Shown here: piece by piece, positions 13,879 through 56,439 of the stretch
Layout of the letters: each line of letters opens with the position of its first letter
How positions within the stretch are numbered: position 1 is the first letter of the stretch
Source of the DNA: Bryobacterales bacterium
GTDB lineage: Bacteria > Acidobacteriota > Terriglobia > Bryobacterales > UBA6623
DNA length: 64,000 bases
NCBI GenBank assembly: GCA_965238125.1
Contig: OZ250179.1
Coordinates: 2,406,723 to 2,470,722, forward strand
Reading direction: 5' to 3'
Program-made: the position numbers and the translations under genes
The notes under the pieces: generated by a model
What the model was told of the DNA's origin: nothing
The model's input: the letters and a program-made list of their open reading frames with translations, nothing else
The model's database searches: none

Positions 13879-13924
13879 GGATGTCGCCACGAATGGCGAC
13901 ACGACTCGCCTGGAGGCGCGCGCC
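13879..13924 (+). repeat. Intergenic hairpin repeat, family 1
   Basis: ggatgtcgccacgaatggcgacacgactcgcctggaggcgcgcgcc. Stem tgtcgcca/tggcgaca with a cgaa loop. Confidence 0.8.
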
Positions 13925-13976
13925 GCGTCCGCCGCCGAGAATAGAGACTTGCCCTGGTCGACGATAATGAATCGAG

Positions 13977-14884: not shown

Positions 14885-14923
14885 CATCCAGGCGAGCCGT
14901 GTCGCCATTTGTGGCGACATGTC
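14885..14923 (-). repeat. Intergenic hairpin repeat, family 1 (inverted orientation)
   Basis: The reverse complement reads gacatgtcgccacaaatggcgacacggctcgcctggatg. Confidence 0.8.
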
Positions 14924-37115: not shown

Positions 37116-37754
37116 CAGGATATTATGCGAGACTCAATAGGGTGAGCCGCCGTCCACAAGTTTTGAGTCCGCGCGTGACCCAACTTACAACGGGACATGC
37201 AAAAAAGGGGCGATGATGCGTCTTATCAACAGAGGCCGGAACGAATTGGAAGGGCGACCGGCAATCAGCGCCTTGTTTGCCCTCCCTCGGTCCGGCCAAT
37301 CTCAGTTCGTCCGTGCAGTGAACCACACGACCCGGCGCGGGAGGTTTACCTCCTTTTTCCCTCCCGCGCCGGGGGGCCGAGAGCCTTCGCTTCGTTTCGA
37401 CGGTTTCCTTAGGTCCACTCGATGCTCCTTGCCAAGGCGATGGCGCCGGGGTTGCGCCATGAAACCGGATCGTTGGGTCGTCGGCACCGCGGTTCCACCA
37501 CTGTCCTTTGGGCCGAACGGCGTCGGCGCATACCGCTTACTGACGTGCGCGGCTCAGTTTGGGCGACGTTGCTCCGGGTCCCACGTTGGTTACAGTGAAG
37601 CGTACCTCCACCCCATCCCGCAGGGCGACAACCGCCGCGCCCAAACTTCACAAAACAGATACTGAGATGGGATGAGAGGCTGGTCGCTTGGAGCCGGGAA
37701 GCGGTAGGCTACCGGCAGCAGCGCACTTCTCCACAAGGGAGGTGCAATGGATTT

Positions 37755-38972
37755 TTGAAAAGGAGGCGACCAGCCATGAAGAAGAATAGCAAACAACAGA
37801 CCGACAAGAACCAAACCGACAAACACCAAACCAAGAAAGCCGACAGCTCACAAGCGAAGACCCGCCAACTCACCCAGCTCGAACAACAGTTGGCGCAACA
37901 ACGCATCCAGATGCAAAAAGACAACGAAATTTGCGCCGTCGCCGGCGTCGACATCGGCGACAAACGTTGCTTCGTACGGCTCACCGACCTCGCCGGCGAA
38001 AGCCTCGAGGAATGCCAAGTCCCCACCCGCCCGGAGGTCTTGGATCGCTGGTTCCGCCGTTGGCCGCGGCTGCGCATTGTGATCGAAACCGGCAGCCACA
38101 GCAACTGGATTCGCCGCCGCCTGGCCGCCCTCGCCCACGACGTGCTCGTCGCCGACGCGCGGCAATTGCGTTTAATCAGCCAATCCGACTCGAAAAACGA
38201 CCGCAACGACGCCTATTGGTTGGCCGAGCTGGGACGCACCAACCCGGCCCTGTTGAATCCCGTCGCGCCGCGCAAGCTCGAGACCGAACAACAACGCACG
38301 TTGTTGCGGGCGCGCGAGGCCGTGCTCGAGTGCCGCACGAAATTGAAAGGGAGTTTGCGCGGCATGGCGAAGTCGCACGGCATCCGCTTGGGCCAATGCG
38401 CCCAGAACCAATGGGTCGAGCGCGTCCGGGAGGCCTGCCCCGAGGTGTTGCACGCGGCGTTGTTGGGGGTGGCGACACAAATCGAAAGCCTCGGCGCGAC
38501 GATCCGCGAATATGACAAACAAATCGTCGCGTTGGGCAAGCAATACGCAGCGGTCGAGCGGCTGCGAACGATCGGAGGGGTGGGGCCGCTGACGGCGTTG
38601 ACGTTCGTGTTGGCGCTCGACAACGACCCGGGCCGCGTGAAGCGTTCGCGGCAGGTCGGCGCGCTGGTGGGGCTGCGTCCCAAGCAACGCCAATCGGGCG
38701 AGCGGTCACTGCGGCTGGGCGTGACGAAATCGGGAGATCCGCTGCTGCGGCGGACGTTGATTCAGTGCGCGCACTGGGTGCTGGGGCCGTTCGGGACCGA
38801 CTCCACGCTCAGGCGCTGGGGTTTGGGTTTGGCGGCGCGCGGCGGAGGACATGCGAAGAAGCGGGCGGTGGTGGCGGTGGCGCGCAAGTTGGCGGTGCTG
38901 ATGCATGTGTTGTGGGTGAAACAAGAAAACTACGATCCGCTGCACGGGCTGACGGAAACGGTTTCCCCATAA
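37755..38972 (+). CDS. IS110-family (DEDD) transposase/recombinase
   Basis: 405 aa. Differs from 24892..26109 at two residues. Confidence 0.95.
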   Translation: MKRRRPAMKKNSKQQTDKNQTDKHQTKKADSSQAKTRQLTQLEQQLAQQRIQMQKDNEICAVAGVDIGDKRCFVRLTDLAGESLEECQVPTRPEVLDRWFRRWPRLRIVIETGSHSNWIRRRLAALAHDVLVADARQLRLISQSDSKNDRNDAYWLAELGRTNPALLNPVAPRKLETEQQRTLLRAREAVLECRTKLKGSLRGMAKSHGIRLGQCAQNQWVERVREACPEVLHAALLGVATQIESLGATIREYDKQIVALGKQYAAVERLRTIGGVGPLTALTFVLALDNDPGRVKRSRQVGALVGLRPKQRQSGERSLRLGVTKSGDPLLRRTLIQCAHWVLGPFGTDSTLRRWGLGLAARGGGHAKKRAVVAVARKLAVLMHVLWVKQENYDPLHGLTETVSP

Positions 38973-39276
38973 GGCAGGGACGATGAGGCGCAGTCGGCGG
39001 CAACGGTTTCGGATGAAGCAACGTGATGAGGACATCCGCGAGCCCCCTAACGGGGACTCGGCGGCAAGAAGATTCCTGTTGAAAGGAAGGGAGTAGGGGA
39101 TTGGGCGGACGAAGCGAGGCCGCGGCGGAGAATCGAGATCGTGTCACGGTGACTGCGGGCTCTGGGCAGGCAGGCCGATTCTTTCGAGGATGGGTCGAAG
39201 CCGCAACAGAGAGAGCAGCGCCGAAAGACCGGACCCCAACCAGCAGAGGTCAACAACGAGACCGATAACACTGCGA

Positions 39277-39489
39277 ATGGAAGCCCGGTCCTCAACGCGC
39301 CGCAAGGCATGAGGACCCGGGCCGGATCCGACAAACCGACCAACGCCTCCCAACGACCGCCCTTGACAAGCGACCCACCTCTCATGGAAGCCCGGTCCTC
39401 AACGCGCCGCAAGGCATGAGGACCCGGGCCGGATCCGACAAACCGACCAACGCCTCCCAACGACCGCCCTTGACAAGGACCCACCTCTC
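39277..39489 (+). repeat. Tandem duplication (107 + 106 bp) of the 3' sub-terminal region of IS110 copy 2
   Basis: Units 39277-39383 and 39384-39489. Each starts with atggaagccc and contains the strong hairpin gcccggtcctca..tgaggacccgggc and the right sub-terminal inverted repeat. Copy 1 has a single unit (26414-26520). Confidence 0.9.
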
Positions 39490-39706
39490 ATGGAGCCCAG
39501 AGCGCAAGCGACGGGCCAAGGGCACACAACCGCCAAGTGCTCCGGCACCGCGGTCGCGTCGAACGATCGTTCCTACGCCCCGTCCACGTCCGGGGCTTAT
39601 CGTGATTCTTGGGTGGAGGACTCCGGCTTCCGCTTCGCTCCACCTTGGGCTACTGTCCGCCGCCCCCTACCGCGGGCTGCGGCGGCGGTTGCAGTAAGAT
39701 TGAGCG

Positions 39707-40648
39707 GTGGGAAGCGGCGAAAAAAGGGCGGGGTTGCAACGGTTGATCGCCGGTGCCGTGTTCGACATCACCGGGGTGGGCCTGATCGCTTTTTCCTTGA
39801 TCCAGCAACGGGACGAACTGCTGTGGGTGGGCGTGGGCCTGATGGCGGTCGGATCGATGTTGATCGTCGGATGGGCGCGCGAACAGTCGCGCCTGGAAGC
39901 GGCGACGCCGACACAGAAACCGGTCGCGGAGTGGTTGGTGGAGCCGGAACTGGCGCTGCCGCCGCCTCGCCGTGTGGAGCTCACCTCGACGGGCCGCTGG
40001 CGGCTATGGCTTTGGCTTGCCGCGGTCGCGGCGGCTGTGCTCTATACGAACGGGTATCCGCGAAGAGCGCAGCCGATGGAGGCGGCCTTTGCGGAGTTCG
40101 GGGTGGAAACCGAAGCGATTGTCCACGACAAGCAGCAGCGCACAAGCGCGGGCGGCGAGCCCCGCTACTACCTCTACTACCATTTCGAGGATCGGCGGGG
40201 CGAACAGGTTCGAGCTTCAACGGCGGTCGGCGAGAGCGTCTACGCGTCTCACGGTGAAGGCGATAGGATTCGGGTGGTCTATCTTGCCAACGATCCGCTT
40301 TCGCATCAGATCCAAGGCGTCGAGGACGACCGTTTGCGGCCGGAAGGGCTGGCGGCGTTGGCCGCGCTGGCGGCGGCGTTGACGGCACTCGAGCTGCAAC
40401 GCCGAAAGCACAAGCGCTTGGTCACGGCGGGATCAGCGGTGGGCGGGACGGTCTTGGAGGTGTCGCGAACCGGCGCGGCGTCGAAGTACACGGTCTCGGT
40501 GGAGACGGGCGGGGCGGAGAGGACGCTGCGGCACTCCGAGCGGGCTTGTCGGCTGCGGGTTGGCGACCGTGTGACGGTGTTGTATTGGCCGGATATGCCG
40601 TCGGACATGGTGCTTTATCGGGGGGCGGTTTATCGGGCGTTGGGGTGA
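39707..40648 (+). CDS. Membrane protein with two DUF3592-like modules
   Basis: TM segments followed by beta-rich modules (EAIVHDKQQRTSAGGEPRYYLYYHFEDRRGEQV..GDRIRVVYLANDP, and a second ..GDRVTVLYWPDMP). GTG start. Confidence 0.6.
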   Translation: MGSGEKRAGLQRLIAGAVFDITGVGLIAFSLIQQRDELLWVGVGLMAVGSMLIVGWAREQSRLEAATPTQKPVAEWLVEPELALPPPRRVELTSTGRWRLWLWLAAVAAAVLYTNGYPRRAQPMEAAFAEFGVETEAIVHDKQQRTSAGGEPRYYLYYHFEDRRGEQVRASTAVGESVYASHGEGDRIRVVYLANDPLSHQIQGVEDDRLRPEGLAALAALAAALTALELQRRKHKRLVTAGSAVGGTVLEVSRTGAASKYTVSVETGGAERTLRHSERACRLRVGDRVTVLYWPDMPSDMVLYRGAVYRALG

Positions 40649-40706
40649 AGGTGCGGGCGGCGGGTTTGCGTGAGGGGCCTTTGGTGTTGTCGCGGGGACG
40701 CTACGC

Positions 40707-40755
40707 GGGACATGTCGGCACGAATGCCGACACGGCTCGCCTGGAGGCGCGCGCC
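40707..40755 (+). repeat. Intergenic hairpin repeat, family 1
   Basis: gggacatgtcggcacgaatgccgacacggctcgcctggaggcgcgcgcc. Confidence 0.8.
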
Positions 40756-40910
40756 ACGTCTTGCCGTCGGGCTTTGAAAGGCGTGGGCAGGGGCTAAATG
40801 CTTGCGTTTCACGGGTTTGATGGTGCATAGTGAGAGCGTTATGCTGCGGCCGCGAACGGGTCGAGGCGTTACGACCATGACTTCCGGGCGGTTGATAGGC
40901 GATATGGACG

Positions 40911-42170
40911 ATGGAGAGCCCCAGAGTAGACGCGCCCATCGTCTACCTCACGGAATTGACCGGCATGCGCGTCGACGGCCCCAAAGGCCGGCGCATCGGA
41001 CGCATCCGCGAGGTGGCGATCGCTCCGAGCGAACACGCGCGACGTGTGTCTCGCTTTTTGCTCGGGGGCGGCAAAACGGCCTTCATGGTGCGTCAGGACC
41101 AGGTGCGTTCGATTTCCCCCGAACGCGTTGAACTCGCCGACGACCGCTTCGTTCCCTACTATCCCGACGAAGGCTTGCTGCTGCTCGGCAAAGACCTTCT
41201 CGACCAGCAAATCGTCGACGTCAACGGACGCAAGGTCGTTCGCGTCAACGACGTCGCTCTGCGCATCGTTTCGATCAACGGTCACGACGAGCTGTGGATT
41301 GAAGAGGTCGGCGTGGGGTTGCAAGGGGCTTTCCGCCGACTGACGGAAGGGGTTTTGCCGGCAACGTTGATTCGGCGGCTGCAACAGCGCATCAAACCCA
41401 ACTCGATCCCCTGGGACTACTGCAATATCGTCGAGCCCGACCCGCAACGGCGCCTCACGCTGAAGATTTCGCACGACCGCATCGGCCGCATTCACCCGGC
41501 CGATCTAGCCGACATTGTGGAGGACCTGCCCCCGGCCGAACGCGAGGCGCTGTTTGAAACCCTGGACGATCACGTCGCGGCCGAGGCGCTGAGCGAGGTG
41601 GACCCGAAAATTCAAGTTTCGATCGTCGAGCACCTCGACAAAGAACGAGCCGCCGACATTCTCGAGGAAATGGCGCCGGACTCCGCCGCCGATGTGTTGG
41701 GCGAATTGCACGAGGAAACGAGCCTGGAAATCCTCAAGGATATGGAGGACGTTCCGGCGGCGGAAGTCGAGGAGCTGCTCGAGTACGAAGAAGATACAGC
41801 AGGGGGGCTGATGAACACCCAGTTCGTGGCGCTCCAAGAACACGCTCTGGTGAAGGACGCCGCCGCCGCTTTCGAAGACCACCAGAACCTGCTGCCAACC
41901 TTGACCCACATATTCCTGACCGACGCGAAGGACCACCTGATCGGCGTCGTGCCGGTGGCTCGACTTACCGTCGCCGAACCGCGCACGCCGTTGCGCAAGT
42001 TGGCGGTGCTGGACGTGGTGACGGTTGACGTCGACGCGGACGAGGAAATGGTGGTCGAGCTTTTCGATAAGTACAATCTGTTTGCGCTGCCGGTGATCGA
42101 CGAGGATGAGGAGCTTTGCGGGGTGATTACGGCGGATGACGTGATCGGGGTCTTGGCGCCGGATCGGTAG
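40911..42170 (+). CDS. Soluble PRC-barrel / MgtE-N / tandem-CBS protein (MgtE cytosolic module without the membrane domain)
   Basis: 419 aa. Acidic helical region DLADIVEDLPPAEREALFETLDDHVAAEALSEVDP..AADILEEMAPDSAADVLGEL (MgtE_N-like), then two CBS-like repeats. It ends right after the second (..CGVITADDVIGVLAPDR) with no TM segments. Confidence 0.8.
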   Translation: MESPRVDAPIVYLTELTGMRVDGPKGRRIGRIREVAIAPSEHARRVSRFLLGGGKTAFMVRQDQVRSISPERVELADDRFVPYYPDEGLLLLGKDLLDQQIVDVNGRKVVRVNDVALRIVSINGHDELWIEEVGVGLQGAFRRLTEGVLPATLIRRLQQRIKPNSIPWDYCNIVEPDPQRRLTLKISHDRIGRIHPADLADIVEDLPPAEREALFETLDDHVAAEALSEVDPKIQVSIVEHLDKERAADILEEMAPDSAADVLGELHEETSLEILKDMEDVPAAEVEELLEYEEDTAGGLMNTQFVALQEHALVKDAAAAFEDHQNLLPTLTHIFLTDAKDHLIGVVPVARLTVAEPRTPLRKLAVLDVVTVDVDADEEMVVELFDKYNLFALPVIDEDEELCGVITADDVIGVLAPDR

Positions 42171-42184
42171 GGGGTTAGACGAGG

Positions 42185-42292
42185 GTCCGGCTGCGCGAAA
42201 AAAGGGTACAGCCACCGATTTTCGCCGTCCGTCGGCGTTGGACGGCGGGGCCTTTCGAGACGCGAAAGTCGCATGGCAGTCCCCCTTTTTCG
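42185..42292. repeat. Inverted pair of family 3 repeat arms
   Basis: gtccggctgcgcgaaaaaagggtacagccaccgattttcgcc ... gcgaaagtcgcatggcagtccccctttttcg, with a central hairpin ccgtcc..ggacgg. Confidence 0.7.
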
Positions 42293-42318
42293 TCCGTGAT
42301 TCCAATGTTTGTGGTTTT

Positions 42319-42385
42319 GGACCGACAGGAGTGTCGGTCCGGACTTTGGGCTGGGAGCGGCACGAGTGCCGGTCACTACTGGGGT
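42319..42385. repeat. Two family 2 hairpin units
   Basis: ggaccgacaggagtgtcggtccggactttgggct / gggagcggcacgagtgccggtcactactgggg. Confidence 0.7.
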
Positions 42386-42413
42386 GTCGGGGGGTGCGGA
42401 GCGCTGAAGTTTC

Positions 42414-43646
42414 ATGCTGAAGAGCTTGCGACAGCGGATGGTTGTGTTTCTGGGCGTTTTGGGGCCCGGGGTGATCACGGCTGTCGTCGACAACGACGCG
42501 GGCGGGCTGCTGATGTATTCCGAAGCCGGCGCGCGCTGGGGCTACGTCACGCTGTGGACGATGATTCCGGTCACGTTGATCTTGATCGTCACCCAGGTGA
42601 TGTGCGCTCGCATGGCGGCGGTAACCGGCAAGGGACTGTCCGACCTGATTCGGGAAGAGTTCGGGCTGCGGACGACGTTTCTGGTGATGGTGGCGCTGCT
42701 GGCGGTCAACCTGACCAACGTCACGGCCAATTTCGCGGGGATCGCCGGCTCGCTTGAATTGTTCCAAATCGACCGCGCGATCTCGGTGCCGTTGGGGGCG
42801 CTGCTGGTGTGGACGTTGGTCGTTCGCGGCACCTACCGGGTGGTGGAGAAAATTTTCCTCGTCGCAAGCTTCCTGTTCGTGGCGTATGCGATATCAGCTT
42901 TCCTCGTGAAGCCGGATTGGGACGAAGCTTTCCGTGCGATGGTGACGCCGGTGGTGAATTTCGATGGTCCTTATCTGGCGATCTTGATCGGCCTGGTGGG
43001 AACATCGGTCGCGCCCTGGATGCAGTTTTACTTGCAGGCATCCATCGTCGAAAAGGGCGTGGATCTCAAGCAGTATCCTGAGTCGCGAGCCGAGGTCGTG
43101 ATCGGCTGCGTGGTGATGGCGTTCATCAAGTTTTTCGTGATCGTCGCGTGCGCTGGAGCCATTTGGGCGCACGGACCGAGACAGATTACGGACATTTCCG
43201 AGGCCGCGGTCGCCTTGCGTCCGTTGGGCGAGTACGCCTACATCTTGTTCAGCGCGGGGCTGTTCAATGCATCGCTCCTGGCGGCGAGCGTTCTACCTCT
43301 TTCCACGGCGTATTCGGTTTGCGAAGGGTTAGGATTTGAGTCGGGAGTGAACCATCGTTTTTCGGAAGCGAAGGTCTTCTATTGGCTCTACACGCTGCTC
43401 ATCGTGGTAGGGGCGGGATTGGTATTGCTGCCGTCGTTTCCGCTGGTGCGGATGATTTTGCTTTCGCAGGTGCTGAACGGAGTATTGCTGCCGCTGATTT
43501 TGATCTTAATTTTGATTTTGGTGAATCGGCGCGGGTTGATGGGCGAGTGGGTGAACTCACCTCTCTATAACCTGGTGGCCTATGGTGCCGTCGCTATGAT
43601 AATTGTCTTGTCGGCGACGTGGGCGGTGGTTTCGATCATGGCGTAG
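42414..43646 (+). CDS. Nramp/SLC11-family divalent cation transporter with non-canonical metal site
   Basis: 410 aa, about 11 TM. TM1 reads AVVDNDAGGLLMYSEAGA where canonical Nramps have DPGN. TM6 reads GLVGTSVAPWMQFYLQAS where they have G.(T/I)(V/I)MPH. Confidence 0.85.
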   Translation: MLKSLRQRMVVFLGVLGPGVITAVVDNDAGGLLMYSEAGARWGYVTLWTMIPVTLILIVTQVMCARMAAVTGKGLSDLIREEFGLRTTFLVMVALLAVNLTNVTANFAGIAGSLELFQIDRAISVPLGALLVWTLVVRGTYRVVEKIFLVASFLFVAYAISAFLVKPDWDEAFRAMVTPVVNFDGPYLAILIGLVGTSVAPWMQFYLQASIVEKGVDLKQYPESRAEVVIGCVVMAFIKFFVIVACAGAIWAHGPRQITDISEAAVALRPLGEYAYILFSAGLFNASLLAASVLPLSTAYSVCEGLGFESGVNHRFSEAKVFYWLYTLLIVVGAGLVLLPSFPLVRMILLSQVLNGVLLPLILILILILVNRRGLMGEWVNSPLYNLVAYGAVAMIIVLSATWAVVSIMA

Positions 43647-43724: not shown

Positions 43725-44513
43725 ATGGATTACTTTGTTGTCGGGCTGGTTTCGATGGCGGTCGCGGCCCTAACCCTGTTTTCGGGGTTCGGGCTGGGGT
43801 CGCTGCTGATGCCGGCGTTCGCGCTGTTTTTTCCCCTGCATGTGGCGGTCGGCGCCACGGCGATTGTTCACCTGGCGAACAACCTATTCAAGCTGGCCCT
43901 GGTGGGCAAGCATGCGTCGCTGCCGATCGCCTTGCGGTTCGGCGGACCGGCGGTGCCGGCGGCCTTCGCGGGAGCACTGATTCTCGGGTCGATCGCCGCC
44001 GGGGATGCGCTGCTGACCTACACCCTGGCGGGCCGCTCGTTTTCGATTACGCTTGTCGGGTTGGTGATGGGATTGCTGATCTTGGTCTTTTCGCTCGCCG
44101 ACTTGCTGCCGTTTTTCGATCGTCTCCGGTTAGGGATGCCGTGGCTGCCGGTCGGAGGTGTTCTATCGGGGCTGTTCGGCGGAATTTCGGGACATCAAGG
44201 GGCGCTGCGGGCGGCGTTTCTGATCAATTGCGGGTTGGGGCGAGATGCATTCATTGGAACGAACGTCGTCTGCGCGGTGATGGTCGATGTTGTTCGACTG
44301 ACGGTCTACGGAACAATGTTTCTTTCGGGCAATCTCGCGGCGACCGACGGCCCCCCGATCGTCGGGTTGGTATTGGCGGCGACGGGATCGGCCTTTTGCG
44401 GATCCTTCCTGGGTGCTCGCTACATGAAAAAGGTGACCTTGGGTACCGTGAGGCGCTTGGTAGGGGCGTTGCTGTTGCTGTTGGGATTGGCGGTCGCCGC
44501 GGGCTGGGTTTGA
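43725..44513 (+). CDS. TauE/SafE (TSUP) family anion exporter-like membrane protein
   Basis: 262 aa with two internally repeated 4-TM halves. Contains FSGFGLGSLLMPAFALFF and GGISGHQGALRAAFL. Confidence 0.8.
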   Translation: MDYFVVGLVSMAVAALTLFSGFGLGSLLMPAFALFFPLHVAVGATAIVHLANNLFKLALVGKHASLPIALRFGGPAVPAAFAGALILGSIAAGDALLTYTLAGRSFSITLVGLVMGLLILVFSLADLLPFFDRLRLGMPWLPVGGVLSGLFGGISGHQGALRAAFLINCGLGRDAFIGTNVVCAVMVDVVRLTVYGTMFLSGNLAATDGPPIVGLVLAATGSAFCGSFLGARYMKKVTLGTVRRLVGALLLLLGLAVAAGWV

Positions 44514-44797
44514 GCGTTTTTCTCGACGGGACCGAGCGTCGGAGAGGGATGCGAAGCGGCGTGGGCTGGGAGGGCGCGGCGTCAACCGGCGACGGGTTAC
44601 CCGTTCAACCCCAAAAAATCCTCGTTCAGCCGATTTTTCCGCCCAACTAGGGTTGTTCCTGTTGGCCTGCATGGTTGAACCATGCTATTCTGACCTTGTC
44701 TACACAAGCAAATTTGGTTTCAAACCTTGGTCGGGCAGCCGCTTTGCGATTGCCCGACTTTTTTGTGGGGTCAAGACTCTTCGCGGCGAGGGCAGAG

Positions 44798-44856
44798 GAC
44801 ATGTCGGCACGAATGCCGACATACACGAATGCCGACACGGCTCTTCTGGAGGCTCA
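44798..44856 (+). repeat. Intergenic hairpin repeat, family 1 (with internal 13-nt reiteration)
   Basis: ggacatgtcggcacgaatgccgacatacacgaatgccgacacggctcttctggaggc. Confidence 0.75.
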
Positions 44857-44870
44857 TACTCGTCCGCTGT

Positions 44871-46307
44871 TTAGCTCAAAATGTCGTGGACGACATGGCC
44901 GTGGACGTCGGTGAGGCTGACGTCGCGGCCGCCGAAGCGGTAGGTCAGCCGTTCGTGGTCCAGACCGAAAAGGTGCAGGATGGTGGCGTGGATGTCGTGC
45001 ACCGTGGTGATGTTCTCGACCGAATGCATGCCCATCTCATCGGTTGCGCCGTAGACGGTGCCGCCCTTGATCCCGGCGCCGGCCATCCATATTGAAAACG
45101 CGGTTTCGTGATGGTCGCGGCCGTGCGCGTTGCCCGTGTGGGGCGTGCGACCGAACTCAGTCCCCCAAACGACCAGAGTCTCATCGAGCATGCCGCGCGA
45201 GCGCAGGTCTTTGATCAGCGCGGTGACGCCTTGGTCAGTGATGAAGGCATTGTTCCAGTGGTTTTCCTTGAGATCGGTGTGCTGGTCCCAGGTGCCGTTA
45301 TTGCCGCCGTAGAGGTCCGGGCAGGTCACTTCAACGAATCGCACACCGGCTTCGATCAGGCGGCGGGCACGAAGACACTGCAGGCTGTAGTGGTACTTGG
45401 GCTTGTGGGTCGTATCGAGCCCGTACAACTTCTTCGTCGCTTCGCTCTCCCGATCGAGGTTCAGCACATCGGGAACGAGCGATTGCATGCGGTAAGCCAG
45501 CTCGTAGTTGTAGATCGCCGACTCGACCGCGTCGTCAGAGCCCGTCGAGGCGAGAAACGAGCGATCTTGCGCCAACAGGGCGTCAAGCTTGGCCCGCTGC
45601 ACGCGCGGGTTCTCATCGGAGGGAACGATGTTGTCGATCGGCGTTCCCTTGGCCTTCACCAGCATGGCCTGATAGGTGGCCGGCAGAAAGCCGTTGGCGT
45701 AGCTTTCCAAGCCGCCCGGAGGAATGGTTCCGCCGTGCAACAGGACGTACCCGGGCAGGTCCCTATTCTCGCTGCCGAGGCCGTAGTTGATCCATGACCC
45801 GAGGCTGGGGTGACCACCCACCGAACGGCCCGTGTGCATCAGCATATTGCCGCGCGGATGTAGCGGGAAGCCGGTCTTCATCGAGCGGACCACCGCTAAT
45901 TCATCGGCGCAGGTCGCGAGGTGCGGAAATACGTCGCTGATGGGAATGCCGGATTCGCCGTAGCGGTGAAACTCAAAGGGGCATTTCTTCCATTTACGGC
46001 GACCGTCCGGGGTCTGATTCTCTCCGTGAAGCTCGGCCAGCTTGGGCTTCGGGTCGAAGGTATCGACGTGCGAAACCGCGCCCGGCATGTAGCAGAAGAT
46101 GATGTTCTTGGCCTTGGGCGCGAAATGCGGTCCGGTGGGGCCGGAGAGCCCGGCGTAAGAATCCTCGGCCATCAACGAGGAAAGCGCCAGCAGACCGAAG
46201 CCGTTCGAGGCGTAGGTCAGCATCTGGCGGCGCGTCATGGGGCGCGCGCCGTAACCGGGGCAAGCCTTTCCAGTTGTCAACTGCTCTTGACTCGTCTCGT
46301 GACTCAT
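44871..46307 (-). CDS. DUF1501 domain protein (sulfatase-fold, Tat-signal)
   Basis: TRRQMLTYASNGFGLLALSSL. Typical partner and position downstream of a DUF1553/PSCyt gene. Confidence 0.85.
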   Translation of the reverse strand: MSHETSQEQLTTGKACPGYGARPMTRRQMLTYASNGFGLLALSSLMAEDSYAGLSGPTGPHFAPKAKNIIFCYMPGAVSHVDTFDPKPKLAELHGENQTPDGRRKWKKCPFEFHRYGESGIPISDVFPHLATCADELAVVRSMKTGFPLHPRGNMLMHTGRSVGGHPSLGSWINYGLGSENRDLPGYVLLHGGTIPPGGLESYANGFLPATYQAMLVKAKGTPIDNIVPSDENPRVQRAKLDALLAQDRSFLASTGSDDAVESAIYNYELAYRMQSLVPDVLNLDRESEATKKLYGLDTTHKPKYHYSLQCLRARRLIEAGVRFVEVTCPDLYGGNNGTWDQHTDLKENHWNNAFITDQGVTALIKDLRSRGMLDETLVVWGTEFGRTPHTGNAHGRDHHETAFSIWMAGAGIKGGTVYGATDEMGMHSVENITTVHDIHATILHLFGLDHERLTYRFGGRDVSLTDVHGHVVHDILS

Positions 46308-46334
46308 GGAGACTACACTTCCTCTATCGCAACT

Positions 46335-49300
46335 TTAGCGCAGGTAGATGAACTCCTTCAAGTTGAAAAGCGCGTGAGCGATGTCTTTCCACACGGCGCG
46401 CGACTTCAGCAGCTCCTCGCGATTGACGCCGTGCAGCGAGCCCATCTCGGCCGCCAGGCCTCGCAGCCGGGTCAGTTCCGCGGCGTCAGGCCGACGAGCC
46501 AGTGCCGTTTCAAACATGTCGGCAATGCGTCTCTCTACATCCATCTCCGAATCGGCCATCACGCGATCAGCCCAGAAACCGGCTTGCTCGATCACGAAGG
46601 GGTGATTGAGCAACGCCAACGACTGCCCGGGAATATTCGTCACGTCGCGCCGCCCCCGACTCACGCCGGGATTCGGGAAATCAAACAGCTCGAGAAAACG
46701 GTCGCCCTCGTGACGGGTAACCTTGATGTAAATGCTTCGTCGGCCGCCGCCGTCGAGCGGCCCGGAATAGAGCTTGCGATATTCCTGCGGGTCTTCGCGG
46801 TAGGGATGAATACTGCTTCCGAACATCTCAGGGTTCAACGTGCCGGCTGTCGTCAAGATCGCATCGCGGACTAACTCCGCGTCCAACCGTCTGACCGGAT
46901 AGCGATGCAGCAGGAGATTGCCCGGGTCGCGCGCCCTACCGACTTCCGAAAGCGTGCTCGACTGACGAAACGTTTCGGTCAACACCAGTTGCCGTATCAG
47001 CTGCTTGATCGACCAGCCTTGTTCAATGAACTGCCCGGCCAGATGATCGAGCAATTCCGGATGCGACGGTTTCTCGCCGACGCGCCCGAAGTTGTTGACC
47101 GTCGCGACGATTCCGCAGCCGAAAACGTAGTGCCAGATGCGGTTGGCCATCACCCGCGCGGTGAGAGGGTTTTCGGGGTCGGCGATCGCCTCGGCGATTT
47201 CGCGCCGGCCGCTGCGCTCGACCTCAAAACCATTGGGGGCTTTCGTGATCAATTGCAGAAAGCCGCGGGGCGCGGGCTCGCCCAAGTTCTTGGGATCGCC
47301 GCGCTTCATGATCGGGTAGTCGCGGCCTTCCTCGACATCGGCCATCCCGTAGACCACGCGGGGCTCGGGAACATCGGACTCGACGGCGCGATATCGTCCG
47401 ACCAAATCCGCCAAGCGCCGGTCGACGTGCACCGAATTGGCGACCAGTTCGTTGTCCACCAACCAGTCCACCCAGCGGGCATCGTCGTCGGTCGCGCGGC
47501 CGGCGGCCCAGGCCTCGATCGCCCTGGCACCCTCGGCGGCAAAACGTTGAGCCAGCTCTTCGAAGCTTTTCGGCGACGAGCCGTCGAAGAGGCGTTTGAG
47601 ATGGGTCAGTTCGTCCTCGGGTACGGCTTCGCAGTCGTGGACTACCACGCGAGCAATCCCGAAATACGAGCGCGGCTGGTCGAGCAACGAAAGGTCGAGC
47701 CCCTCCATGCGGCCCGGGCGATCCGGAAAGCGCGGGTTGTCGTGCCGCGTCGCCATTTCGACATAGAAGGGATAGGAATGCTGCTCGAAGCGGGTGGGAA
47801 TCCGCACCCATTCGAGATTGTTGTTGTCGATCGGCTTGTAATCCTCGGCCAACATGCAGTTGTCGAGCGTGGCCCGCCAGGAACCGAGCTTGCCGCCCAT
47901 CACCTGCATGCTGACGAAGAGCTTGTCTTGCGGCACAAAGGGCGATCGGATCGCCGCGTTGAATTTCTCGGAAAGCGCGTGGGTGTACAGACCGGCGGGA
48001 AAGACGCCGCCCAGCACGCGGGGGCCCTCGGGAGCGATCGTGAATTCGCCGGGCGGTGAGGCGGCGTCGGTCAGCGCCTGCCCTTCGCCGGACCAATCAT
48101 GGAGCGAGCCGTCACGGAAGTCGACGAAGTCCTCGAAATAGACCCGGTTGAACTCGACGCGCGAAGCGGTTTCCTTGTGATAGCGGGCGGTGAGGCTCTT
48201 CCAGTTTTCGAGGAAATCACCCGCTGCTTGGTCGGCGAGTCGAGTAAGCTCGACCCAGAGATAGAGGGGGTCGTCCCATTTGATTTTCTCCCGCGCGAAA
48301 AGGACCGGAGCGGGAGTGTCTTCTTTCTCGGCGTCGGTGGCATCCTTGTCGGCCGACTTGTCGGCGTCGGCAGCGGGCTCTTGATCGGCCTCGGCGTTTT
48401 CCGTGTCGGTGTCGGCGGGTTTGTCGTCCGCTTCAGCCGACTCGGCTTCTTTCGCCTCGGCCTCTTCGGCCTCTTCTTTGTCAGGGCGTGGGCGATGTTT
48501 CCACGAGGAGTACGCCTCGCTCAGCCGCGTGGCGATTTGAGTGTCTTGCTTGATCCACAGCGAAGCCAAAGCGTCGCGAATCTTGGGCTTGAGTTGCCGC
48601 ATCTTCTCGCGGCGGGCTTCGTTGAGCTCGCGGGTGTCGAGCGTCCGCGTCACCAGTCGCGAGCTGCTAAGCACGCTGTAGAGCCCGTAGTAGTCTTTGG
48701 TCGGAATCGGGTCGAGCTTGTGATCGTGGCAGCGGGCGCAGGCAATCGTCAGCCCTTGGAAGGCCTTCCCGAGCACATCGATCTGGTCGTCGACGACATC
48801 CGTTCGGACCTCGCGGAAAAGAATGCAATCGTCGTGGCCTTGTTCGCCGAGGCGATAGAAATTCAGCCCGGCAAGCGATTCGTTAATGCCGTCTTGCTCG
48901 TTGATGCGCGACTCGTCGAGCAGGTCGCCCGCGATATGCTCGCGGATGAGTTGATCATAAGGTACGTCTTTGTTGAAAGCCCGAATCAAGTAATCGCGGT
49001 AGTGCGACGCCCCGTTGAGCTCGTAATTCCAGTCGTTACCGAAAGTCTCGGCGAAGCGCACCACGTCCATCCAATGCCGCGCCCAGTGCTCGCCGAAATG
49101 GACGGAGGCCAACAGCTCTTCGACCGCCTTTTCGTAACCGGCGGACGAGGGGTCGGCGGCGAATCGGGCCAGCTGCTCGGGGCTTGGCGGAAGGCCCGTC
49201 AGCACGAAACTCACACGGCGGAGCAAGGTTGCCGGATCGGCCGCGGGGGCGGGCGCAAGTTCGGCCTCGACAAGCTTGCGGCGAATGAAACGGTCAACCG

Positions 49301-49826
49301 GCGAAAGCGCCTTTCCGGAGGGGTCCTGTCGCGGCGGCGCAACTTTCTTCACAGGCTGAAACGCCCAATGCTCCCTCGTGATCTGCTCGTAAAATTCCGG
49401 GTCGCCGGAACCGAGCGGTTGATCTTTCTCGGCGGGCCAGGGCGCGCCTATCGAGATCCACTTTTCGATCGCCGCGATTTGGCCGTCGGCAAGCTTCCCG
49501 CTGGGAGGCATTTCGAAGCCTTCATGACGGACAACTCGGGCAAGAAGACTGCTTTCGGCATCGCCGAGAATGATCGCCGGTCCGCGGCTGCCGCCGGCCA
49601 GAATCGCCTCGCGCGAATCGAGCCGCAACCCCTTCTGTTGTAATTGCGAGCCGTGGCAGACATAGCACTGTTCGGCGAGTACCGGCCGCACTTCTTTCTC
49701 GAAAAATTCGAGGTCTTCGGCGGAACCATCGGCGGCCTGTAGGGGAGAGACCGCGGCCGAGACGAAAAACAGAAGAAGGGCCGCGCCGAACCGGCCCGCG
49801 AAACAAATCGTCCCCCGAAAAATCAT
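46335..49826 (-). CDS. PSCyt1/PSCyt2(DUF1549)/PSD1(DUF1553) planctomycete cytochrome-c domain protein
   Basis: FFEKEVRPVLAEQCYVCHG plus the CARCHDHKLDPI motif. ATG 49826 (MIFRGTICFAGRFGAALLLFFVSAAVSPLQA) is preferred, because the upstream part of the ORF lies in a repeat. Confidence 0.9.
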   Translation of the reverse strand: MIFRGTICFAGRFGAALLLFFVSAAVSPLQAADGSAEDLEFFEKEVRPVLAEQCYVCHGSQLQQKGLRLDSREAILAGGSRGPAIILGDAESSLLARVVRHEGFEMPPSGKLADGQIAAIEKWISIGAPWPAEKDQPLGSGDPEFYEQITREHWAFQPVKKVAPPRQDPSGKALSPVDRFIRRKLVEAELAPAPAADPATLLRRVSFVLTGLPPSPEQLARFAADPSSAGYEKAVEELLASVHFGEHWARHWMDVVRFAETFGNDWNYELNGASHYRDYLIRAFNKDVPYDQLIREHIAGDLLDESRINEQDGINESLAGLNFYRLGEQGHDDCILFREVRTDVVDDQIDVLGKAFQGLTIACARCHDHKLDPIPTKDYYGLYSVLSSSRLVTRTLDTRELNEARREKMRQLKPKIRDALASLWIKQDTQIATRLSEAYSSWKHRPRPDKEEAEEAEAKEAESAEADDKPADTDTENAEADQEPAADADKSADKDATDAEKEDTPAPVLFAREKIKWDDPLYLWVELTRLADQAAGDFLENWKSLTARYHKETASRVEFNRVYFEDFVDFRDGSLHDWSGEGQALTDAASPPGEFTIAPEGPRVLGGVFPAGLYTHALSEKFNAAIRSPFVPQDKLFVSMQVMGGKLGSWRATLDNCMLAEDYKPIDNNNLEWVRIPTRFEQHSYPFYVEMATRHDNPRFPDRPGRMEGLDLSLLDQPRSYFGIARVVVHDCEAVPEDELTHLKRLFDGSSPKSFEELAQRFAAEGARAIEAWAAGRATDDDARWVDWLVDNELVANSVHVDRRLADLVGRYRAVESDVPEPRVVYGMADVEEGRDYPIMKRGDPKNLGEPAPRGFLQLITKAPNGFEVERSGRREIAEAIADPENPLTARVMANRIWHYVFGCGIVATVNNFGRVGEKPSHPELLDHLAGQFIEQGWSIKQLIRQLVLTETFRQSSTLSEVGRARDPGNLLLHRYPVRRLDAELVRDAILTTAGTLNPEMFGSSIHPYREDPQEYRKLYSGPLDGGGRRSIYIKVTRHEGDRFLELFDFPNPGVSRGRRDVTNIPGQSLALLNHPFVIEQAGFWADRVMADSEMDVERRIADMFETALARRPDAAELTRLRGLAAEMGSLHGVNREELLKSRAVWKDIAHALFNLKEFIYLR

Positions 49827-49862
49827 GCTGGTTCCAGTGTAACGCCCCCCCAACCGCCAGGA

Positions 49863-49968
49863 GCGAAAAAGGGGGGCTGCCACCGATTTTCGCCTACCCA
49901 ACTGCGTCAAGTCCAAATCAGTCCCAGCGAAAATCGGCTGACTGTCCCCCTTTTTCGCGTAGCCGGAC
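49863..49968. repeat. Inverted pair of family 3 repeat arms
   Basis: gcgaaaaaggggggctgccaccgattttcgc ... gcgaaaatcggctgactgtccccctttttcgcgtagccggac. Confidence 0.75.
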
Positions 49969-56357: not shown

Positions 56358-56392
56358 ACGCCGCAATCCCCCGATGCCGAACGTCCCGACGT

Positions 56393-56439
56393 GGCGCGCG
56401 TCTCCAGACGTGCCGTGTCACTATTCCTGGCGACATGTC
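56393..56439 (-). repeat. Intergenic hairpin repeat, family 1 (degenerate, inverted)
   Basis: The reverse complement reads gacatgtcgccaggaatagtgacacggcacgtctggagacgcgcgc. Confidence 0.65.

Follow-up and report, generated by a model that had tools for sequence, protein, structure and literature searches.

The gene analyzed in the present study, nrmT, very probably encodes an NRMT-type SLC11/Nramp carrier that transports Mg2+ and Mn2+ without H+ coupling and is encoded together with an MgtE-N/CBS partner protein. The membership of the nrmT protein in the NRMT clade, the residues of its binding site, its fold and the conserved gene pair are established here; the substrate range, the absence of H+ coupling and the role of the partner are what we infer from published work on homologues. 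The genes and the spacer concerned are located as follows in the window, the whole 64-kb stretch of DNA that was analyzed:

40911..42170, + strand: partner gene, directly upstream of nrmT, for a soluble 419-aa protein (the 'MgtE-like fragment' of NrmT operons)
42171..42413, + strand: 243-nt spacer between the partner gene and nrmT, with a palindromic repeat of about 100 nt at 42195-42292
42414..43646, + strand: nrmT, predicted Nramp-related Mg2+/Mn2+ transporter of 410 aa with 11 predicted TM helices
43725..44513, + strand: gene for a TauE/SafE-family membrane protein (Pfam TauE, 60 bits), 78 nt downstream of nrmT

The nrmT reading frame, from its ATG start to the included stop codon, is intact and full-length. 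The Pfam Nramp profile (PF01566) matches the protein from end to end with 291 bits against a cutoff of 29.8, residues 35-382 covering profile positions 4-356 of 357. The AlphaFold (AF2) model (pLDDT 86.8, pTM 0.86) contains 11 long helices, interrupted at residues 26-28 and 199-200, which is the SLC11 LeuT-fold architecture of 11 TM helices with unwound TM1 and TM6. The top Foldseek match of this model is 7qia_A (TM 0.90/0.91), compared with a TM score of 0.82 for DraNramp; 7QIA is a structure of EleNRMT, the NRMT of Eggerthella lenta (PDB 7QIA/7QIC/7QJI/7QJJ; Ramanadane et al. 2022, PMC8806188).

The sequence comparisons led to the same placement. Among the solved structures, EleNRMT was by far the best match (E=1e-94, 321 bits, residues 8-409), with 40% identity and 66% positives over 398 aa and 2 gaps in BLASTP. 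No MntH, NRAMP or NRAT chain exceeded 71 bits, the score of DraNramp; NRAT (8ont) reached 41 bits, and ScaDMT and human DMT1 about 37. The NCBIfam MntH models fell far below their cutoffs (NF001923, 101 bits against 430; TIGR01197, 48 against 272.5), and the identity to both DraNramp and E. coli MntH was 23%. As the first-pass annotation had proposed, the protein was also placed phylogenetically: in a neighbor-joining tree, the nrmT protein and 59 other non-outgroup sequences, EleNRMT included, share a long branch apart from DraNramp and E. coli MntH. This tree leaves out CabNRMT, Acp2977 and the separate 'outgroup' clade of Cellier, and has low bootstrap at internal nodes; just two of its features can be relied on, the close Bryobacterales grouping and the separation from canonical MntH. 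Relatives of the protein fall into 666 clusters of 50% identity at E<=1e-30 and are found in at least 598 species genomes; the genome scan covered the best 80 loci, all from acidobacterial MAGs or isolates and closer than CabNRMT and Acp2977. Thus, the nrmT protein is an ordinary member of the described NRMT branch, and nothing about this placement is surprising.

The residues that distinguish this branch from canonical MntH are encoded at the following positions:

42495..42506, + strand: motif D28-A-G-G31 of the unwound region of TM1, counterpart of D-P-G-N (NRMT signature DxxG)
42729..42731, + strand: N106 on TM3, by alignment at the site of a widely conserved Glu (E133 of EleNRMT, E134 of DraNramp)
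43002..43019, + strand: motif T197-S-V-A200-P-W202 of the unwound region of TM6, counterpart of A-x-x-M-P-H (NRMT signature TxxA)
43467..43469, + strand: Q352 on TM10, by alignment the counterpart of Q379 in EleNRMT and Q378 in DraNramp

The register of TM1 and TM6 was taken from a HMMER alignment to DraNramp and from MAFFT alignments with DraNramp, E. coli MntH and EleNRMT. D28 corresponds to D56 of DraNramp, D34 of E. coli MntH and D55 of EleNRMT, and G31 to N59 of DraNramp and G58 of EleNRMT. The strings quoted in the first-pass annotation, D26-N-D-A-G-G31 at 42489-42506 and G196-T-S-V-A-P-W202 with Ala200 at 43011-43013, are indeed present there, but its reading of TM1 as a change from DPGN to DNDAG was out of register: D-P-G-N aligns with D28-A29-G30-G31, and D26 and N27 lie upstream of the motif. 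Therefore, the Asp that binds the metal is still present, and it is the Asn that has changed, to Gly (DPGN to DAGG). The substitutions described for TM6 (Ala to Thr197, Met to Ala200 and His to Trp202) agree with the alignment, in which T197 corresponds to T224 of EleNRMT and A227 of DraNramp, A200 to A227 and M230, and W202 to W229 and H232, respectively.

The TM1 variant had been regarded as absent from characterized members, but EleNRMT (PDB 7QIA) reads GNDAGG. Among 53 full-length cluster representatives, (D/G)NDAGG is the TM1 form seen most often (approximately 40%), and DNDAGG itself, the commonest form in the acidobacterial relatives, occurs in 51 of 84 genome loci, with wide variation at the x positions; given how common it is in the clade, DNDAGG is not novel. 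The canonical MntH/Slc11 site of groups A, B and C (DPGN with A-x-x-M-P-H) is replaced in the nrmT protein by DAGG and TSVAPW. NRAT proteins, the plant Al3+ transporters, carry the signature DxxN - AxxT, in place of which the nrmT protein has DxxG - TxxA. The signature of the NRMT clade is DxxG / TxxA(T) (PMC8806188), and both halves are found here, in D28AGG31 and T197SVA200. Together with the EleNRMT score, the 7QIA fold match and the misses of the MntH models, this signature bears out the earlier suggestion of an NRMT, drawn from the missing TM6 Met; neither outcome that the first-pass annotation had named as refuting, a canonical D..N / A..M site or clustering with characterized Mn2+ transporters, was obtained. 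Three residues that have been functionally tested in EleNRMT, D55, T224 and Q379, are conserved as D28, T197 and Q352, the last being invariant in all 120 homologues and all 84 genome loci. In EleNRMT, Q379A strongly compromised transport, and T224A abolished the transport of Mg2+ while that of Mn2+ was kept (PMC8806188).

The canonical proton-pathway positions are occupied by L96, V103, N106, W202, Q208, W324 and T327, so that every protonatable residue of the pathway, that is, the TM6b His pair and the charged residues of TM3 and TM9, has a non-protonatable replacement. At the position of N106, Asn was observed in 120/120 close homologues and in 14 of the 84 genome loci, and Glu in 69 of the 84; 13 of the Asn-bearing loci carry T-S-V-A-P-W and one carries T-S-I-A-P-W. 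The Terriglobales relatives in the genome scan, 54-58% identical to the nrmT protein, have E plus T-T-I-A/T, not N plus T-S-V-A. Judged from these alignments, the change from Glu to Asn106 on TM3 is sublineage-specific, and after it no conserved charged residue other than the TM1 Asp would remain; it goes together with the change from T-T-I-A to T-S-V-A. The TM3 substitution and the repeat-bearing spacer are the only local peculiarities of the nrmT locus.

The partner protein consists of two PRC-barrel-like beta domains, an MgtE_N domain and a CBS pair, without a membrane domain. Pfam reported MgtE_N (91 bits), CBS and PRC, and Foldseek matched the AF2 model to MgtE cytosolic domains. Residues 190-416 align with cytosolic residues 27-256 of Thermus thermophilus MgtE (E=1.7e-31, approximately 35% identity). 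In an MgtE channel, a plug helix and a five-TM pore domain come after the N domain and CBS pair; the partner reading frame stops after CBS2 at residue 419, equivalent to MgtE residue 256 of 473, and the channel model TIGR00400 gave 141 bits against a cutoff of 233. The partner gene lies directly upstream of nrmT in 26/26 relatives at 60% identity or more and in 20 of 50 more distant loci, and such an MgtE cytoplasmic-domain neighbor is typical of most NRMT members, although not obligatory. MgtE-like neighbors in NrmT operons, the Acidobacterium pair among them, were reported in 2014 by Shin et al. (PMC4072509), and no later work on the NrmT partner protein was found in the literature searched. 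As a third member of the system, the TauE/SafE gene was ruled out, since none of the related loci has it, the only tblastn match among 85 loci being in the source contig; it probably lies outside the conserved unit.

The gap between the partner gene and nrmT has a median of 18 nt in close relatives, compared with 243 nt here, and a second copy of the repeat families in this spacer (D11 and D12) lies at 49863-49957. IS elements were also observed a few kb upstream. Neither an M-box (ykoK) nor any other Rfam family reached its gathering score in the whole window, and no M-box or other riboswitch was detected upstream of either gene at Rfam E<=10 (40400-42600). The M-box was likewise absent from 18 related loci with long spacers, in which the only Rfam match was an Acido-Lenti-1 RNA in one locus (L030). 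The M-box is not a defining feature of the clade, because the A. capsulatum member is also without one; some members have the element and others do not. The possibility that the spacer holds a conserved leader RNA was rejected: the 243 nt gave no alignment with the spacer (368 nt) of L006, the closest species representative, their fold is not unusual (z-score -1.6), and no promoter-like or terminator-like site was seen in them. The spacer is a lineage-specific inserted genomic repeat and not a riboswitch. With this repeat-bearing spacer between the genes, the co-transcription of the pair is therefore not assured.

The most likely function of the nrmT protein would be to take up Mg2+ and Mn2+ without proton coupling. 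Homology to EleNRMT places the binding site where TM1 and TM6 unwind, at their centers, and suggests that it has been remodelled for a hard cation that keeps most of its hydration shell: the retained Asp28 would act as a carboxylate ligand, Thr197 would contribute a hydroxyl and a backbone oxygen, Gly31 (for Asn) and Ala200 (for Met) would widen the pocket, and Gln352 on TM10 would shut the site in the occluded state. On the same grounds, the protein would import Mg2+ and Mn2+ with sub-millimolar affinity, but not Ca2+, and would not cotransport H+, so that uptake would draw on the ion gradient and the membrane potential. The partner protein would most likely be a cytosolic sensor of Mg2+, and possibly of a nucleotide, that regulates the carrier in trans. 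A bolder proposal, which we consider unlikely, is that the Bryobacterales sublineage has retuned the NRMT site or that the partner is a true trans-acting gating subunit. A retuned carrier could differ from EleNRMT in its selectivity for Mg2+ versus Mn2+ or in its voltage dependence. If the partner gates in trans, a channel-family Mg2+ sensor would have been recruited to control a carrier of unrelated fold. Co-expression of the A. capsulatum partner with Acp2977 had no effect (PMC4072509).

The strongest challenge to the Mg2+ and Mn2+ carrier proposed here concerns its physiological job; the Asn in place of the TM3 Glu kept by EleNRMT and the long spacer between the two genes also weigh against this proposal. 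A protein of the same fold and clade might serve the uptake of Mn2+ as a transition metal, with Mg2+ a mere low-affinity competitor and the partner responding to a signal other than Mg2+; we regard this as a tentative alternative, on the doubtful side. Acp2977, the only acidobacterial NrmT assayed, which shares the phylum and the gene pair and also lacks a riboswitch, fully rescued a B. subtilis mntH/mntABCD mutant in Mn2+ uptake and rescued a Mg2+-uptake mutant only partly, at low-millimolar Mg2+ (PMC4072509). Shin et al. concluded that high-affinity Mg2+ transport is confined to a subset of NrmT proteins and considered the M-box the best marker of Mg2+ specificity (PMC4072509). The affinity of EleNRMT for Mn2+ is about four times its affinity for Mg2+, with a Km of about 120 uM for Mn2+ and a Kd of about 400 uM for Mg2+ (PMC8806188). 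The lack of an M-box in the window and in the 18 related loci is consistent with a job in Mn2+ uptake. However, Thr197, the residue whose loss in EleNRMT abolishes Mg2+ transport, is conserved, and the partner shows homology to a domain known to sense Mg2+. Moreover, free Mg2+ exceeds Mn2+ by orders of magnitude in both the environment and the cytosol; with an approximately fourfold preference for Mn2+ against such an excess, the site would therefore mostly carry Mg2+. The two readings are not mutually exclusive.

Two further explanations deny that a working NRMT is present. A decaying or non-functional nrmT, parted from its partner by the repeat insertion, would fit the outlying length of the palindromic-repeat spacer and the nearby IS elements, but it is very unlikely: nrmT is intact, its protein is 94% identical to homologues on other contigs and retains all clade-invariant residues, and the partner reading frame is likewise intact, with 94% identity to its best homologue. 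Still less credible is the idea that the motifs were mis-read and that the protein is a canonical H+-coupled MntH with a normal D..N / A..M site. The first TM1 register was in fact two residues off, and the metal-binding Asp is kept; however, the correction restores the Asp alone, the positions of the Asn, the Met and both His still being G31, A200, W202 and Q208, and the low MntH-model scores and the 23% identity to DraNramp and E. coli MntH point the same way. The alignments already refute this explanation.

On its own, the finding of an nrmT gene matters little, since NRMTs have been known since 2014 and their structure since 2022, with thousands of members. NCBIfam lacks a model specific to NRMTs, and close homologues are publicly named 'Mn transporter' or 'Mn2+/Fe2+ NRAMP family transporter'; as a result, Mg2+-capable carriers from Acidobacteriota are mislabelled systematically. 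That the partner is strictly conserved in close relatives draws attention, twelve years on, to the role of this soluble 'sensor without a channel'.

Compared with known systems, the nrmT protein shares with canonical MntH (DraNramp, E. coli MntH, ScaDMT and EcoDMT) the Pfam family, the LeuT fold (TM 0.73-0.82), the TM1 Asp and the TM10 Gln. Canonical MntH is H+-coupled and excludes Mg2+, and the nrmT protein lacks its Asn, its Met, both TM6b His and the Glu/Asp/Arg proton network of TM3 and TM9. The partner has the N domain and CBS pair in common with the MgtE cytosolic domain (T. thermophilus, 2YVY/2YVX); it differs in having no plug helix or transmembrane pore and in about 190 additional N-terminal residues, which hold the two PRC-barrel-like beta domains. 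The NrmT proteins of Clostridium acetobutylicum (Ca_c0685 and Ca_c3329; CabNRMT), compared by description, are the founding members of the clade and also have an MgtE-like fragment in the operon, but the clostridial genes are under M-box Mg2+ riboswitches, unlike nrmT here, and the partner of Ca_c0685 is split into two genes (PMC4072509). What is known of transport by the clostridial proteins, as by Acp2977, comes from complementation (PMC4072509). The Acp2976/Acp2977 pair of Acidobacterium capsulatum resembles the present locus, again by description, in phylum, in the gene for an MgtE cytoplasmic domain directly upstream and in the absence of an M-box (PMC4072509). EleNRMT transported Mn2+ and Mg2+ in proteoliposomes, without Ca2+ transport or H+ coupling, and the chain solved was a thermostabilized construct with 11 consensus mutations (PMC8806188). 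It shares with the nrmT protein the site residues D, G, T, A and Q, the Trp at the first TM6b His position and hydrophobic or polar residues along the proton path of TM3 and TM9. The two differ in TM3 (Glu133 to Asn106), in TM6 (T-T-I-A to T-S-V-A, the EleNRMT motif being GTTIAPW) and in the residue before the TM1 motif, which is Gly in EleNRMT and Asp26 here; the nrmT protein, from Acidobacteriota rather than Actinomycetota, is also about 27 residues shorter at the N-terminus.

The results obtained herein show that nrmT, encoding a 410-residue Nramp-fold protein, is an ordinary Nramp-related Mg2+ transporter (NRMT) with its usual partner, a kind of system that is already known. The relevant features are as follows.

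42414-43646, + strand: nrmT (Nramp family), ATG start, 410 codons plus stop
42489-42506, + strand: D26-N-D-A-G-G31, TM1 of nrmT
43011-43013, + strand: Ala200 within G196-T-S-V-A-P-W202, TM6 of nrmT
40911-42170, + strand: partner, 419 aa, with PRC-barrel, MgtE_N and CBS domains (Pfam) and no membrane part
40911-41480, + strand: N-terminal extension of the partner, about 190 residues (1-190), not in the MgtE cytosolic domain, modelled as two beta-barrel (PRC-like) domains

Residues 35-382 of nrmT matched nearly the whole Pfam Nramp profile (PF01566; 291 bits, cutoff 29.8). The best solved relative was the Eggerthella lenta transporter EleNRMT (7QIA and three further entries; E=1e-94, 321 bits, residues 8-409), and BLASTP aligned 398 residues of the two with only two gaps (identity 40%, positives 66%). 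DraNramp MntH came next (at most 71 bits), and lower scores were obtained for NRAT (41 bits) and for ScaDMT and human DMT1 (both near 37 bits). An AlphaFold2 model from a 12-sequence alignment (pLDDT 86.8, pTM 0.86) contained 11 long helices with breaks at 26-28 and 199-200, where TM1 and TM6 are unwound at their centres, and Foldseek ranked 7qia_A first (TM 0.90/0.91, rmsd 2.7 A), followed by DraNramp structures at TM 0.82 or below. In a neighbour-joining tree, nrmT, its relatives and EleNRMT were on a long branch apart from DraNramp and E. coli MntH, to each of which nrmT is 23% identical; nrmT was placed with Bryobacterales sequences at bootstrap 99-100, while deeper internal nodes were poorly supported. 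The NCBIfam MntH models fell far short of their cutoffs (101 bits against 430, and 48 against 272.5), and the sole model passed was the generic one, "Nramp family divalent metal transporter".

The motif register was examined using HMMER alignments to solved structures, a MAFFT alignment of 53 full-length cluster representatives with EleNRMT and DraNramp, and a second alignment including E. coli MntH. In the latter, D56, N59, E124, D131, E134, A227, M230, H232, H237, R352, R353 and Q378 of DraNramp were all at the expected letters, which validates the residue numbering. The first-pass annotation had equated the canonical TM1 motif DPGN with DNDAG; the strings and coordinates were borne out, but the counterpart of D-P-G-N is D28-A29-G30-G31, with D26-N27 upstream of the motif, such that the metal-binding Asp is kept and the canonical Asn is replaced with Gly. 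The proposed TM6 changes (Met to Ala, His to Trp) were recovered in the alignment, with T197-S-V-A200-P-W202 as the counterpart of A-x-x-M-P-H. Classical NRAMPs are distinguished by DxxN / A(C)xxM, NRATs by DxxN / AxxT and NRMTs by DxxG / TxxA(T) (Ramanadane et al., PMC8806188). The DxxG / TxxA signature of nrmT agrees with the best match, the structure and the tree, and together these support the suggestion that loss of the TM6 Met points to the NRMT clade. The TM1 variant had been considered unfamiliar among characterised members; however, EleNRMT reads GNDAGG (and GTTIAPW in TM6), and DNDAGG was read in 51 of the 84 species-level genome loci among the matches listed. Since (D/G)-N-D-A-G-G is also the commonest form in the 53 representatives of 50%-identity clusters (approximately 40%, the x positions being highly variable), the nrmT variant is typical of the clade.

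By homology to EleNRMT, ions would bind at the unwound TM1/TM6 centre, with Asp28, Thr197 and Gln352 predicted to take the roles of D55, T224 and Q379, and Gly31 and Ala200 would widen the pocket so that Mg2+ is bound with most of its hydration shell. In EleNRMT, D55A and Q379A strongly compromise transport, and T224A abolishes Mg2+ transport and merely raises the Km for Mn2+; the protein carries Mn2+ (Km ~120 uM) and Mg2+ (Kd ~400 uM), with no Ca2+ transport and no H+ cotransport (PMC8806188). The DraNramp proton-pathway positions are all non-protonatable in nrmT (L96, V103, N106, W202, Q208, W324 and T327), suggesting that uptake would be expected to be uncoupled and potential-driven. EleNRMT keeps the TM3 Glu, whereas nrmT has N106; Cellier (PMC9606685) describes this Glu as the one charged residue of the Slc11 proton network that the outgroup conserves. 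The TM3 Asn is a minor variant: it accompanies T/A-S-V-A-P-W in nrmT and in 120 of the 120 closest homologues. Among the matches listed, Asn was seen in 14 of the 84 genome loci, of which 13 read T-S-V-A-P-W and one T-S-I-A-P-W in TM6; the 69 loci carrying Glu read T-T-I-A/T/S, T-S-I-A or, in a single case, A-T-I-A. In the wider NRMT set of 53 representatives the Glu is not invariant, with E, D, Q and N at this position.

We consider it quite probable, by analogy with EleNRMT, that nrmT is a Mg2+-capable, uncoupled importer of Mg2+ and Mn2+. This reading overlaps with one in which nrmT serves primarily Mn2+ in vivo, which appears less likely. Acidobacterium capsulatum NrmT fully rescued a Mn2+-uptake mutant, whereas its rescue of a Mg2+-uptake mutant required Mg2+ in the low-millimolar range (PMC4072509). 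According to the proposal of Shin et al. (PMC4072509), high-affinity Mg2+ transport is confined to some members of the clade, many of them marked by M-box riboswitches, and an M-box is not present at nrmT. Conservation of Thr197, however, argues against a mainly Mn2+ role. Moreover, Mg2+ is in large excess over Mn2+ in nature, and a site of weak selectivity would accordingly tend to carry Mg2+.

Repeats and neighbouring genes of the locus are listed below.

42195-42292: core of a palindromic repeat (about 100 nt) inserted in the spacer between partner and nrmT; second partial copy at 49863-49968, 7.7 kb away
13881-13929, 14887-14923 (-), 40690-40775, 44797-44853, 56388-56419 (-): second short intergenic repeat family, hairpin core GTCGGCACGAATGCCGAC
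24795-26584, 37658-39552: insertion-sequence-like block, two copies, 99-100% identical, 12.9 kb apart
26414, 39277, 39384: 94-nt segment in triplicate
43725-44513, + strand: TauE/SafE-family membrane protein gene, 78 nt downstream of nrmT
44871-49916, - strand: genes for a DUF1501 protein and a 1193-aa PSCyt1/PSCyt2/PSD1 protein, unrelated to nrmT

The spacer between partner and nrmT (243 nt, 42171-42413) is unusual compared with approximately 18 nt in close relatives, and its repeat may form a REP/MITE-like hairpin between the two cistrons. The spacer had no Rfam match and no unusual fold stability, and could not be aligned to the long spacer found in L006, the locus of the closest species representative. 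Two direct copies of the GTCGGCACGAATGCCGAC family, which was seen in none of the related loci, flank the mgtE-like/nrmT/tauE block. The insertion-sequence-like copy adjoining the locus encodes an IS110-family transposase (DEDD_Tnp_IS110/Transposase_20), with a DDE_3/HTH transposase further upstream. The TauE/SafE gene was found in the window's contig only and, among the matches listed, was absent from the 84 related loci; it is therefore probably a local rearrangement outside the nrmT system. The DUF1501 and PSCyt1/PSCyt2/PSD1 gene pair is common in Planctomycetota and Acidobacteriota. An Acido-Lenti-1 RNA motif (RF01687; 38.8 bits, barely over the gathering score) was observed at 1829-1878 of L030, an Acidobacteriaceae MAG locus, where the gene for the MgtE-like partner follows about 210 nt downstream of the motif; the window has no counterpart.

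The family is large: 8978 clusters (50% identity) were counted at E<=1e-3, of which 666 remained at E<=1e-30, and relatives were confirmed in at least 598 species genomes. The close homologues, with identities reaching 94%, are from Bryobacterales/Solibacterales MAGs, and those with names are labelled either "Mn transporter" or "Mn2+/Fe2+ NRAMP family transporter". For the partner, the database name is "magnesium transporter MgtE", though it lacks a pore. Because NCBIfam contains no NRMT-specific model and the partner is poreless, both database names are misleading. The remaining value concerns annotation, with Mg2+-capable carriers bearing Mn2+ transporter labels, and the question of what the MgtE-like partner does.

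The similarity of the partner to the T. thermophilus MgtE cytosolic domain (E=1.7e-31) spans partner residues 190-416 and MgtE residues 27-256. In the partner model, two beta-rich domains (~10-75 and ~100-175) are followed by a helical MgtE_N domain at 196-278 and a CBS pair at 300-415, and the best structural matches were MgtE cytosolic domains. The N-terminal extension, of which no discussion was found in the literature searched, is kept across the listed partner homologues at least 60% identical, and the 419-420-aa architecture recurs in more than 100 homologues. The partner was directly upstream in all 26 loci with enough flank and a transporter at least 60% identical (median gap 18 nt), and in 20 of 50 loci at 54-59% identity. 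About half of the acidobacterial loci L027-L083, in this latter range, had no partner within 3.5 kb upstream, and about half of these carried variant motifs (DNDPNG, DNDPGG, TTITPW), a pattern suggestive of a paralogous subfamily that lacks the partner. A plausible role for the partner is that of a cytosolic sensor of Mg2+ or nucleotides that acts on the carrier; however, in the sole experiment on record, on the A. capsulatum pair, co-expression was without effect (Shin et al. 2014, PMC4072509). The MgtE-like partner of NRMTs was already described in that study, which reported that most NrmT genes come with one encoding an MgtE cytoplasmic-domain homologue (Shin et al. 2014, PMC4072509), and the A. 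capsulatum pair tested there likewise consists of an MgtE-like gene and NrmT, also without a riboswitch.
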